From an archaeon GW2011_AR10 (lineage in GTDB: Archaea; Iainarchaeota; Iainarchaeia; Iainarchaeales; GW2011-AR10), in NCBI GenBank assembly GCA_000830275.1, contig CP010424.1:1209429-1241428 (forward strand): a stretch of DNA of 32,000 bases, in the 5' to 3' direction. Made by a program: the position numbers and the translations under genes. Below the pieces are notes generated by a model. The model did not search any database. It saw only the letters and a list, made by a program, of their open reading frames with translations, and was not told where the DNA came from. Positions 6,309 to 11,747 of the stretch are shown piece after piece (within the stretch, counting starts at the first letter, position 1; every line of letters starts with the position of its first letter).

Positions 6309-6410
6309 GGGCTCGTGGTCTAGTGGCATGACGGATCCTTGGCGATGAATGCAAAATTAATGCTTTCACTTGAATGGATCAAATTGGGGGTTCGATTCCC
6401 CCCGAGTCCA
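6309..6410 (+). tRNA. tRNA-Ala(GGC) with an intron of about 30 nt in the anticodon loop
   Basis: Acceptor GGGCTCG/CGAGTCC with the G3:U70 alanine identity pair. D-arm GTCT-AGTGGCA-TGAC, anticodon stem GATCC/GGATC, variable loop AAATT, T-arm GGGGG-TTCGATT-CCCCC, discriminator A. The 5' side of the loop reads TTGGCG (anticodon GGC), then ~30 extra nt. Exact splice sites were not resolved by eye. Confidence 0.8.
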
Positions 6411-9639: not shown

Positions 9640-9817
9640 TTTCCTAAAAGTTGCTTTAAAATTTTTTCCCACCAAGAAATCATTCAACCCAAAAGATACC
9701 TCGGCTTTTAAGTCGCGGTTATTGGCCTCGGTATCTTTTCCGTTGACGGGTTCATGACGTCCATTAAATGTTGGGATACCCCTGCCTTTAGGCATGGGAG
9801 GACGTCATTTGCTTGAA

Positions 9818-9843
9818 GGGCCTATGGTCTACCGGTATGATTC
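9818..9843 (+). pseudogene. tRNA 5' fragment (acceptor 5' strand plus intact D-arm), partner of the 3' fragment at 11723-11747
   Basis: GGGCCTA-TG-GTCT-ACCGGTA-TGAT-T. It shares GGGCCTnTGGTCTA with tRNA-Val at 11425. Its acceptor strand is perfectly complementary to TAGGCCC at 11740-11746. No anticodon or T arm follows. Confidence 0.6.
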
Positions 9844-10013
9844 ATTCTAATTTTTTCAGACACCTCCAATTTAGAATTTTTTCTTAGGACTCTGATTTTC
9901 TCGGCTTAAACCTTTGCACGTCTGAATCTCTAATTTTTGTGCAAAGGATTTAATGCCTCCAAAATCAACAGAGACGTCCACGAAAAAATTCATCATTCAT
10001 TGGAGGTGATTCG

Positions 10014-10148
10014 ATGAAAAATTTTAATTTTCAAATTCCCTCAAAGGGAGAACTCAGAAGAGCTCTAGGATTAGCTCACTCAAATCCAGAAGAACTAACT
10101 GACAGGGAGCTTTGGATTCTAGAAGAGTTTGGAGGAGATTTTCAGTGA
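10014..10148 (+). CDS. Small ORF (44 aa), first gene of the endonuclease operon
   Basis: GGAGGTGA lies 4-11 nt upstream of the ATG. Translation is MKNFNFQIPSKGELRRALGLAHSNPEELTDRELWILEEFGGDFQ. Its stop overlaps the next start (GTGA). Confidence 0.45.
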   Translation: MKNFNFQIPSKGELRRALGLAHSNPEELTDRELWILEEFGGDFQ

Positions 10149-10297
10149 GCTTTATTCTTCTATTTCTTTTTAGCTTGATTTTCTTTCCTCTGCTCTTTAT
10201 TCTTGATGCATTTGGATTTAATGAAGAAGCATATGAGATAGCGAAATATCTAGTAGCTTTTTTCTTAGGAATGCTTGTTTGGGAGTTGGTGTTATGA
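10145..10297 (+). CDS. Small two-TM membrane protein (50 aa)
   Basis: GTG 10145 has GGAGGAG 8 nt upstream. Two hydrophobic segments, SFILLFLFSLIFFPLLFIL and YLVAFFLGMLVWELVL. Its stop overlaps the endonuclease ATG (ATGA). Confidence 0.4.
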   Translation: MSFILLFLFSLIFFPLLFILDAFGFNEEAYEIAKYLVAFFLGMLVWELVL

Positions 10298-11439
10298 ATC
10301 CCGCACCGGAAATGAACCCTCAAATTCGATATAAATCTAAAAAACTAATTTCTTTTATGAAAAGCCTTTCTGGTTATACAATAGAAGAAAAAAGAGTATT
10401 GCTTGAAGATCCAAAACTATTTTTTAGAGCAATTAAAGAATCTCCAAAATACCTTTCTTGGAATTCTCTTGTCGAAGATGTTAGTTGTGCAAATACAACT
10501 TTGAAAAAGTATAGGCGAGGAGAGTTAACTATCCGAGGAGATATTTTCCTTAAACTTTTGAGTTATTTAAGTAAAAATCAAAAGCAAAGACTAATTTCCA
10601 AGATAAATTTAGTGAATTCTAATTGGGGTGCAATTAAGGGCGGTAAGCGAGGTTTTGCAGTAATAAAAGAAAAGTATGGTGAAAACTATTTGGAGATGCT
10701 AAGAGTCAAAGGTCAGCGAGCAAGTTTGAATAGCCCATTGTTCATTACCAAACCAATGGAAATTACTATCCCTTCAAGCATTACTATGGAAATTGCAGAG
10801 CTATTTGGAGCCTATCTTGGGGATGGAACTTTAACAAAATATTTTATGAGAATTGCAGGGGATAAGCGACTGGATAAGTATTATTTCATCTATCTTTCAG
10901 GATTAATCAAAAAGAATTTTGGATTGAGTTCAACCATAAAAGAGATAAGCCTTTCTACAAATCAACTTTGCTTGGAAATAAGATCAAAAAGATTTGTGGA
11001 TTATTTCAGACATGTTTTTCAACTGAAAATAGGGAATAAAATTAGAAATTCATCAAAAATTCCTGAATTTATTATAGAAGACAAGGAATTAGCAAAAGCG
11101 TGTTTGAGAGGGTTGATGGATACTGACGGATCTTTTTCAAGGAGGTCAACATATATGTGTTTAGCTTTTACGTCCCATAGCCCTATACTGCTAGGCCAAG
11201 TTCATAATCTTGGTTTAAAATTTGGGTATTTTTCCTATAAATTTAAAGATCAAGTAGGTTCTAATTCTTCTGGCAGAATAAAGAAGTATTTCTCAGAAGT
11301 TGGCAGTTCAAATTTGAGGCATATAGTCCGTTACCATGAACATCTTAAAAATAACCGTTTTTTGTATTCTGAGGAAACATTAAAATATTTTCCTGAATAT
11401 CAAAATCTTATGCTGCCATATTATGGGCCTGTGGTCTAG
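10294..11439 (+). CDS. Double-motif LAGLIDADG homing endonuclease with an N-terminal HTH-like extension
   Basis: Motifs are LFGAYLGDGT (from ~10801) and LRGLMDTDGS (from ~11104), about 100 aa apart. The coding region is AT-rich. ATG 10294 is preferred over the track start TTG 10279. The TAG stop (11437-11439) lies inside the D-arm of tRNA-Val. Confidence 0.85.
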   Translation: MNPAPEMNPQIRYKSKKLISFMKSLSGYTIEEKRVLLEDPKLFFRAIKESPKYLSWNSLVEDVSCANTTLKKYRRGELTIRGDIFLKLLSYLSKNQKQRLISKINLVNSNWGAIKGGKRGFAVIKEKYGENYLEMLRVKGQRASLNSPLFITKPMEITIPSSITMEIAELFGAYLGDGTLTKYFMRIAGDKRLDKYYFIYLSGLIKKNFGLSSTIKEISLSTNQLCLEIRSKRFVDYFRHVFQLKIGNKIRNSSKIPEFIIEDKELAKACLRGLMDTDGSFSRRSTYMCLAFTSHSPILLGQVHNLGLKFGYFSYKFKDQVGSNSSGRIKKYFSEVGSSNLRHIVRYHEHLKNNRFLYSEETLKYFPEYQNLMLPYYGPVV

Positions 11440-11535
11440 TGGTTAGAGAGCTTAGGAAAAATTAATCTTGGCTCTCCCGCAAATGACGTTACCTTGACAT
11501 GGTAAAGATCGGCAGTTCGATTCTGCCCAGGCCCA
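11425..11535 (+). tRNA. tRNA-Val(GAC) with a 38-nt intron in the D-loop (position 20/21)
   Basis: After removing 11445-11482 the 73-nt product folds as GGGCCTG TG GTCT AGTGGTTA TGAC G TTACC TTGACAT GGTAA AGATC GGCAG TTCGATT CTGCC CAGGCCC A. A bulge-helix-bulge surrounds the insert. Confidence 0.85.
11445..11482 (+). other. Predicted BHB-type tRNA intron
   Basis: The 4-bp helix GTGG(11439-11442)/CCGC(11477-11480) is flanked by the 3-nt bulges TTA (11443-11445) and AAA (11481-11483) on opposite strands. The intron helix is GAGAGC(11446-11451)/GCTCTC(11471-11476). Confidence 0.75.
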
Positions 11536-11545
11536 CTTTAAATCA

Positions 11546-11715
11546 GGTAATTCCACCGTTTTCAAACGGTAGTCAGGTAAAACTTTGACAAATCAAGTGA
11601 TTGCTCCATATTTCATTTTGTCAAAGTTTTAGTGGAATTACTACTGTCAAGAACCACTTGCTTGTTTTGGAATTTTATAAACATGCCACTGACTTTAGTC
11701 GGTGGTTCTTGACAA
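11546..11715 (+). repeat. Structured intergenic repeat, copy B (longest copy)
   Basis: Stem 1 is GTAATTCCAC(11546-11555)/GTGGAATTAC(11632-11641). It encloses CCGTTT-TC-AAACGG and a 14-bp stem AAAACTTTGACAAA/TTTGTCAAAGTTTT. Stem 2 is TGTCAAGAACCAC(11645-11657)/GTGGTTCTTGACA(11701-11713). Confidence 0.75.
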
Positions 11716-11722
11716 CAATTTA

Positions 11723-11747
11723 GGCGGTTCGACTCCGCCTAGGCCCA
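11723..11747 (+). pseudogene. tRNA 3' fragment (T-arm, acceptor 3' strand, discriminator)
   Basis: GGCGG-TTCGACT-CCGCC-TAGGCCC-A. No matching 5' strand lies within 1.8 kb except GGGCCTA at 9818. It differs from the tRNA-Val 3' end at 4 of 25 positions; two of these are the paired 52:62 positions and one is position 66, whose partner (position 7) changes correspondingly in the 5' fragment. Confidence 0.65.

Follow-up and report, generated by a model that had tools for sequence, protein, structure and literature searches.

[quoted passage not shown] The tRNA-Val(GAC) intron considered here, located in a window of 32,000 nucleotides (the whole stretch of DNA analysed) from the archaeon GW2011_AR10, is, taken alone, of a known kind, D-loop HBh' introns having already been described. 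It shares with the archaeal D-loop BHB introns the insertion just before A21, the central helix of 4 bp, the two 3-nt bulges and the relaxed exon side; the known ones are spliced by protein, and the same is predicted for the present one from its sequence. It differs from them, however, in residing in tRNA-Val on a mobile endonuclease cassette, and in its host, whose splicing endonuclease EndA is a single loop-less subunit of 172 aa with threonine at the column of the catalytic lysine.

The origin and spread of non-canonical archaeal tRNA introns, and the question whether they protect tRNA genes against mobile elements, have been discussed (PMC3293823, PMC3239211). At the tRNA-Thr(GGU) locus of Caldiarchaeum subterraneum, a 5' fragment, an insert of ~1.9 kb and a full tRNA with a gained non-canonical intron follow one another, much as in the window, and the intron was proposed to protect from further invasion (Sugahara 2012, PMC3293823). 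That insert was, however, read as a plasmid/recombinase element with no tRNA overlap, whereas in the window the tRNA is overlapped by a LAGLIDADG gene, the old gene has left both of its halves and the pattern recurs at ~90 loci. The fungal mitochondrial mORFs (Allomyces atp6, Glomus; PMC3630166) likewise combine an endonuclease with a replacement for a part of its target, the native part being stranded, but in the window the target is an archaeal tRNA gene and the cassette supplies an entire tRNA together with its putative promoter and intron. Phage T4 SegB and collaborative homing (PMC2988022) offer a free-standing nuclease beside tRNA genes and a nuclease-intron partnership, although SegB is a GIY-YIG enzyme cutting an intergenic site and the introns of collaborative homing belong to group I and not to the BHB type; phage free-standing endonucleases are also comparable in their retention-favouring embedded host promoters and RBS-hiding hairpins (PMC2988022). 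Finally, I-DmoI, I-Tsp061I, PI-PfuI and the TliVMA intein endonuclease share the fold and the two acidic catalytic motifs, but sit inside rRNA introns or inteins, the enzyme in the window being free-standing and having an extra N-terminal helical domain.

The setting of the intron is a variant of the known replacement-carrying homing elements, and what the present analysis adds is the evidence of the intron travelling with the endonuclease, plus taxon-matched counts. In the literature searched, most subscription papers lying outside it, no paper was found on LAGLIDADG cassettes that overlap tRNAs in DPANN. Overall, it appears likely that an intron-bearing replacement tRNA-Val has been delivered by a homing-type cassette and is spliced by the EndA of the host. 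The locus points to one route by which odd tRNA introns may spread, i.e. as part of a replacement copy on a selfish DNA-cutting gene.

Architecture of the locus

The features recognized in the window are as follows:

9655..9660, + strand: TTTAAA, probable native promoter of the 5' stump (-39 after removal of the miniature element, MITE)
9684..9807, no strand assigned: multicopy miniature element between the stump and its promoter
9818..9848, + strand: 5' stump left by an older Val-like tRNA gene, comprising the acceptor strand and an intron-less D-arm (perhaps to U32; secure to ~9841)
9849..10030, + strand: long imperfect hairpin sequestering the SD-like GGAGGTGA (10002-10009) and ATG 10014
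10014..10297, + strand: two tiny coupled ORFs, 10014-10148 (44 aa) and 10145-10297 (50 aa, hydrophobic)
10294..11439, + strand: LAGLIDADG endonuclease of 381 aa, double-motif and free-standing, its N-terminal domain helical (HTH-like)
11380..11387, + strand: TATA-like TTAAAATA within the endonuclease ORF (codons L-K-Y), at -45 from the tRNA
11425..11444, + strand: tRNA-Val(GAC) 5' exon, nt 1-20a, of which nt 1-15 double as the last five endonuclease codons (GPVV-stop)
11445..11482, + strand: D-loop intron, 38 nt, site 20a/21, relaxed BHB (HBh')
11483..11535, + strand: tRNA-Val(GAC) 3' exon, anticodon GAC at 11496-11498, CCA unencoded
11537..11714, no strand assigned: dispersed hairpin-rich miniature repeat behind the tRNA, with partial matches at ~15 other sites
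11723..11747, + strand: 3' stump of the older tRNA, with T-arm, acceptor strand TAGGCCC and discriminator A, without the anticodon arm

The region 11425-11535 matches the Rfam tRNA model with 55.4 bits, the insert falling in the D-loop. When all excisions leaving a valid D-arm were scored, that of 11445-11482 reached the top BHB score (12 vs 10 for the runner-up), and the resulting 73-nt product, with the canonical cloverleaf restored, was called tRNA-Val(gac) by ARAGORN; the same program found no match in the raw window and yielded noise at low thresholds. The Rfam match, the best-scoring excision and the ARAGORN call bear out the 38-nt D-loop intron of the original prediction, which had placed it at 20/21. 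An EndA-type intron at a non-canonical D-loop position holds, but the exact site has to be corrected to 20a/21, because the spliced D-loop is identical to that of the intron-less tRNA-Val(CAC) of the same genome. The host, a groundwater archaeon of the Iainarchaeota, has a single tRNA-Val(GAC) gene in a genome of 1.24 Mb that is assembled as one contig and complete to 99.9%, and the same intron was found on two independent metagenome contigs, 99.7% identical.

More than 20 tRNAs of the host genome (G000) bear introns. The survey of its other tRNAs, proposed together with the prediction, found D-loop introns also in tRNA-Val(UAC) (G000 C1:1051309) and tRNA-Glu(UUC) (G000 C1:159765), the former intron being similar to those in Val(GAC) genes of the same family. 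It should be pointed out that the window also contains tRNA-Ala(GGC) with G3:U70 (6309-6410, + strand), which has an insert in the anticodon loop and was overlooked by ARAGORN. The scans of the whole G000 genome did not find tRNA-Tyr(GUA) and tRNA-Arg(CCG), which introns may have concealed; tRNA-Ile(UAU) was detected. A second copy of the tRNA-Ser(GCU) 3' end occurs 1.5 kb downstream, the interval containing small ORFs (G000 C1:392.7 kb, - strand), a probable integration remnant.

Concerning the endonuclease, the ORF 10294-11439 contains both LAGLIDADG helices, the acidic residues and the family fold, the catalytic D177 and D278 being intact, and its product is distinct from the splicing endonuclease. 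Its start is inferred to be ATG 10294 from the ATGA overlap, the longest version of the ORF beginning at TTG 10279; the tiny ORFs are linked to it via GTGA and ATGA overlaps. No group I intron, giant BHB or intein context was found around the ORF, and no close relative in viral contigs. A tRNA-Val lies within 300 bp of 90 of the 105 close endonuclease loci (60 GAC, 30 CAC and no UAC), and more distant relatives in the order adjoin other tRNAs; support in the endonuclease tree is weak to modest near the window locus. A well-supported subclade (L035, L068, L074, L155 and L189) sits downstream of tRNA-Val(CAC), and at L035 a duplicated 3' tRNA piece follows the endonuclease ORF.

The tRNA pieces could also be taken for att remnants of an integrase-driven element, with the LAGLIDADG gene as passive cargo or a domesticated, WhiA-like DNA-binding protein. 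A similar order of fragment, insert and tRNA has been ascribed to plasmid integration (Sugahara 2012, PMC3293823), and WhiA is among the fold matches of the endonuclease; against this, the endonuclease is the only integrase-sized ORF within the 1.9-kb insert, its catalytic acidic residues are invariant among relatives, the specificity of clade to tRNA is strict, and the patchy distribution of the gene, which has often decayed into a relic, fits a homing cycle, so that such an origin is considered very unlikely.

The cassette, ~1.9 kb long, splits the older Val-like gene. The acceptor strands of the two stumps pair perfectly with each other and not with the intact gene (A7:U66 replaces G7:C66), as would be expected if the outer halves made up a functional tRNA whose giant intron of 1.9 kb held the endonuclease and a nested tRNA. 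That arrangement is, however, improbable in the extreme: no join of the stumps gives more than 3/5 anticodon-stem pairs or a full BHB, the structured stretch ahead of the 3' piece is a dispersed repeat, and there is no group I intron match; ARAGORN calls on such joins are uninformative, many anticodons passing. Since no join gives an anticodon arm or a full BHB, the outer stumps are regarded as the remains of an older gene. The uninterrupted D-arm claimed for the upstream tRNA fragment was confirmed for the piece at 9818, which differs from the resident tRNA at nt 7, 15, 16 and 25 and in the absence of the intron. At other loci the stumps stop at approximately nt 22-30, and those with a complete D-arm are intron-less, even where the carried copy has an intron. 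As in replacement cassettes, a stranded piece of the native gene and a divergent carried copy are both present. The same ttuA-linked locus in Ca. I. andersonii comprises an endonuclease, a Val(GAC) gene lacking an intron, and a 3' stump. A ttuA-like gene adjoins tRNA-Val(GAC) order-wide (L032 and L404 compared with the window), and G013 has the cassette and tRNA in reversed orientation with respect to the genes around them.

With regard to the upstream part, many tRNAs of the host genome have a TTTAAA-type promoter at -31 to -39. The element at 9684-9807, likewise hairpin-rich, presumably has an IS200/IS605-type end, judging by resemblance; members of its family also occur 4 nt upstream of tRNA-Thr(CGU) (C1:29124). 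The hairpin hiding the SD and start of the first tiny ORF recalls the translational silencing of phage endonucleases. A comparable tiny-ORF module precedes another free-standing LAGLIDADG gene (G000 C1:492.2-493.3 kb), beside the same miniature element.

Intron geometry and the splicing machinery

The BHB had been described as near-textbook, with the helix GTGG/CCGC, the bulges TTA and AAA, and an intron helix. These elements stand: the central helix (11439-42/11477-80) consists of three G-C pairs and one U.G pair, the bulges (11443-45 and 11481-83) are of 3 nt each, and the intron helix starts at 11446, covers 7 bp and extends further. The precursor fold has z = -4.2, none of 200 shuffles being equally stable. 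The epithet was, however, overstated, because pairing on the exon side is limited to A14:U22 and U13.G23, beyond which there is a C12xA24 mismatch, and the motif is therefore the relaxed HBh' and not the strict hBHBh'; two exon-side pairs and then a mismatch were seen in 34/34 introns at the same site. In these 34 homologues the first three pairs of the intron helix are kept in 95 of 102 cases, against 55.8 +/- 3.9 with shuffled partners, the covariation including several pair types, whereas the pairing of the central helix is partly built into the way in which the same-site introns were selected.

The host genome encodes EndA, RtcB and RNase P RNA. EndA is the product of a single gene (172 aa; L061:1474-1992, - strand; G000 C1:137.3-137.8 kb), and no second EndA subunit was found in the host genome. 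Since it aligns gap-free to the EndA of M. jannaschii, it lacks a specificity loop; the L1, L2 and L3 loop inserts of the broad-specificity EndA types are absent from Iainarchaeales EndA, and the Tyr-His spacing is 10 in 30/30 of these sequences vs 15 in ARMAN-2. The canonical triad Tyr-His-Lys is incomplete in the host, with Tyr and His present and Thr at the Lys column, which is occupied by Thr in 28 and by Ala in two of the 30 Iainarchaeales EndA (L375-L403 and L415 among the loci). Ca. I. andersonii also has Thr or Ala there; Lys is retained in two Nanobdellota and one Micrarchaeota, all that were checked. In ARMAN-2 EndA, replacement of the catalytic Lys by Ala abolishes activity (PMC12397907). 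The host genome nevertheless contains many introns of non-canonical type; judging from sequence conservation, the basic YP(R/K)GK loop may stand in for the missing lysine. A lysine-less and loop-less EndA processing relaxed motifs across an archaeal order is a separate, testable puzzle. As to the ligase, rtcB is split by a long insertion, in frame and weakly matching LAGLIDADG (G000 C1:778.6-781.4 kb), probably an intein.

Stop-codon overlap and the embedded promoter-like element

The endonuclease ORF closes with GGG CCT GTG GTC TAG, and its reading confirms the predicted stop inside the D-arm, TAG at 11437-39 being tRNA nt 13-15. The overlap is common, the stop codon lying inside the tRNA in 63 of the 72 upstream cassettes, mostly as TAG at nt 8-10 or 13-15. 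The accompanying claim of co-transcription with the mRNA end set by RNase P finds the RNase P RNA in place, but it has to be modified in two respects. Since any full-length mRNA has to contain tRNA nt 1-15, an RNase P cut at +1 would remove the stop codon; cleavage at 11425 would, we infer, strip the last five codons including the stop and leave a non-stop mRNA. The tRNA, moreover, is probably self-promoted. In the host genome, two genes with an eRF1 domain were interpreted as pelota and aRF1.

In 14/14 relatives the Leu-Lys pair at -45 is encoded by TTA AAA, the background usage being 20% for TTA and 70% for AAA, and the TTAAAATA stretch persists in relics after the rest of the endonuclease gene has decayed. 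Being held at the DNA level and surviving in relics, TTAAAATA inside the ORF is probably the tRNA's own promoter, although not with certainty, because it lies a few bases upstream of the usual position in this genome. An embedded promoter would lock the cassette in place, as it does with the T4 endonucleases (PMC2988022).

Probable mobility of the intron and possible immunity of the carried copy

The four introns closest to that of the window, out of 35, are all located beside endonucleases 50-69% identical to the window's, in hosts whose TtuA is 50-58% identical (measurable in three of the four). The best match reaches 72% over the core (shuffle p < 0.001) and comes from another family, with TtuA 50% identical, whereas in two same-family hosts (TtuA 64-65%) the similarity of the intron is not significant (p 0.21 and 0.77). 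Both the endonuclease and the intron are closest to those of other host families. Since the intron resembles those beside the closest endonucleases and not the same-family ones, it quite probably moved with the cassette, as far as sequence comparison can tell. Intron similarity did not scale with endonuclease identity over all cassettes (rho 0.25, p 0.3), and the intron state requires at least eight changes on the endonuclease tree. The loci L146 and L412 were left out of the transfer evidence, their foreign flanks being probably chimeric assemblies. The locus provides sequence evidence for a probable joint movement of intron and nuclease across host families.

In the taxon-matched counts, for which the Val(GAC) genes were sampled largely via the 3' exon, the intron occurs in 6/11 cassette vs 8/88 free genes of Iainarchaeales and, counting short C-terminal relics, in 9/14 cassette-linked vs 7/85 other genes; nominal p-values overstate these differences, because the genomes are related and not independent. 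The Nanobdellota sample gave 2/7 cassette vs 5/69 free genes, which is not significant (p = 0.12). A pooled count of 34/72 vs 12/111 is not relied on, since it mixes taxa and anticodons (GAC-only p = 0.18).

An ordinary D-loop intron could alternatively have been inherited vertically, the cassette having inserted separately and recaptured the local tRNA, with the intron unrelated to immunity. Introns at the same site with no endonuclease trace do exist in same-family Val genes, in G002, G004 and G014, and in the Val(UAC) of the host, where introns are anyway frequent; on the other hand, the displaced stump is intron-less, introns are enriched beside endonucleases and their relics, and the likeness of 72% is to a cassette intron of another family and not to the same-family ones. 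Vertical inheritance is therefore regarded as unlikely.

The intron was originally suggested to protect the copy it interrupts from the neighbouring endonuclease. In favour are the association and the co-travel; against are the intron-less cassettes (the intron is absent from 38/72 Val cassettes), the introns without an endonuclease and the substitutions in the stump. An uninterrupted AGYGG D-loop was found in 0/11 cassette copies vs 54/88 free genes of Iainarchaeales; when only intron-less genes are considered, the D-loop is altered in 5/5 cassette copies, while 54/80 free genes retain AGYGG. In Nanobdellota, AGTGG is kept in 3/5 intron-less cassette copies. The stump in the window already has the non-consensus ACCGG, so substitutions alone might give immunity, and the BHB pairing could itself conserve the D-loop. 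Taken from these patterns, a real role of the intron in the immunity of the carried copy may be assumed or doubted with nearly equal right. A further candidate observation, a greater divergence of the intron-less cassette copies compared with free genes (3.9 vs 0.9 mismatches), was rejected, because the control had been picked by D-arm pattern; free Nanobdellota genes matched for lineage show divergence as well (2.95 mismatches).

In the preferred scenario of delivery by a homing-type cassette, a Val-specific LAGLIDADG endonuclease would cut the resident tRNA-Val near the D-arm/anticodon stem, and repair would bring in the endonuclease gene, the promoter within the final codons of that gene and a complete, in this case intron-bearing tRNA-Val, with the halves of the old gene left stranded on either side of the cassette ('cut and bring a spare'). 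The cassette would carry the intron from one host family to another. The pre-tRNA would be cut by the single EndA of the host on the 3' side of the second base in both bulges, and ligation by RtcB would yield the sole tRNA-Val(GAC) of the cell. The intron would probably help to shield the new copy from recutting, D-loop substitutions seeming equivalent in the intron-less sister cassettes, and the stop-codon overlap together with the embedded promoter would lock the gene in, tRNA maturation stripping the stop from the read-through mRNA. More tentatively, and with somewhat less conviction than doubt, free-standing LAGLIDADG cassettes might cut intron-less tRNA-Val across the D-loop and so spread non-canonical D-arm introns between DPANN lineages, the intron being the immunity determinant and outlasting the nuclease with a promoter relic, i.e. 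a collaborative homing for protein-spliced tRNA introns. The locus lends itself to a cheap direct test: the nuclease is small and intact, and natural targets exist in both intron-bearing and intron-less form.

It should finally be noted that cassette-borne Val introns are also located at approximately 15/16, 21/22 and 23/24 (L067, L069, L188, L078, L082, L200, L083 and L086), and that the free Val genes sampled contain introns only at 20/21.
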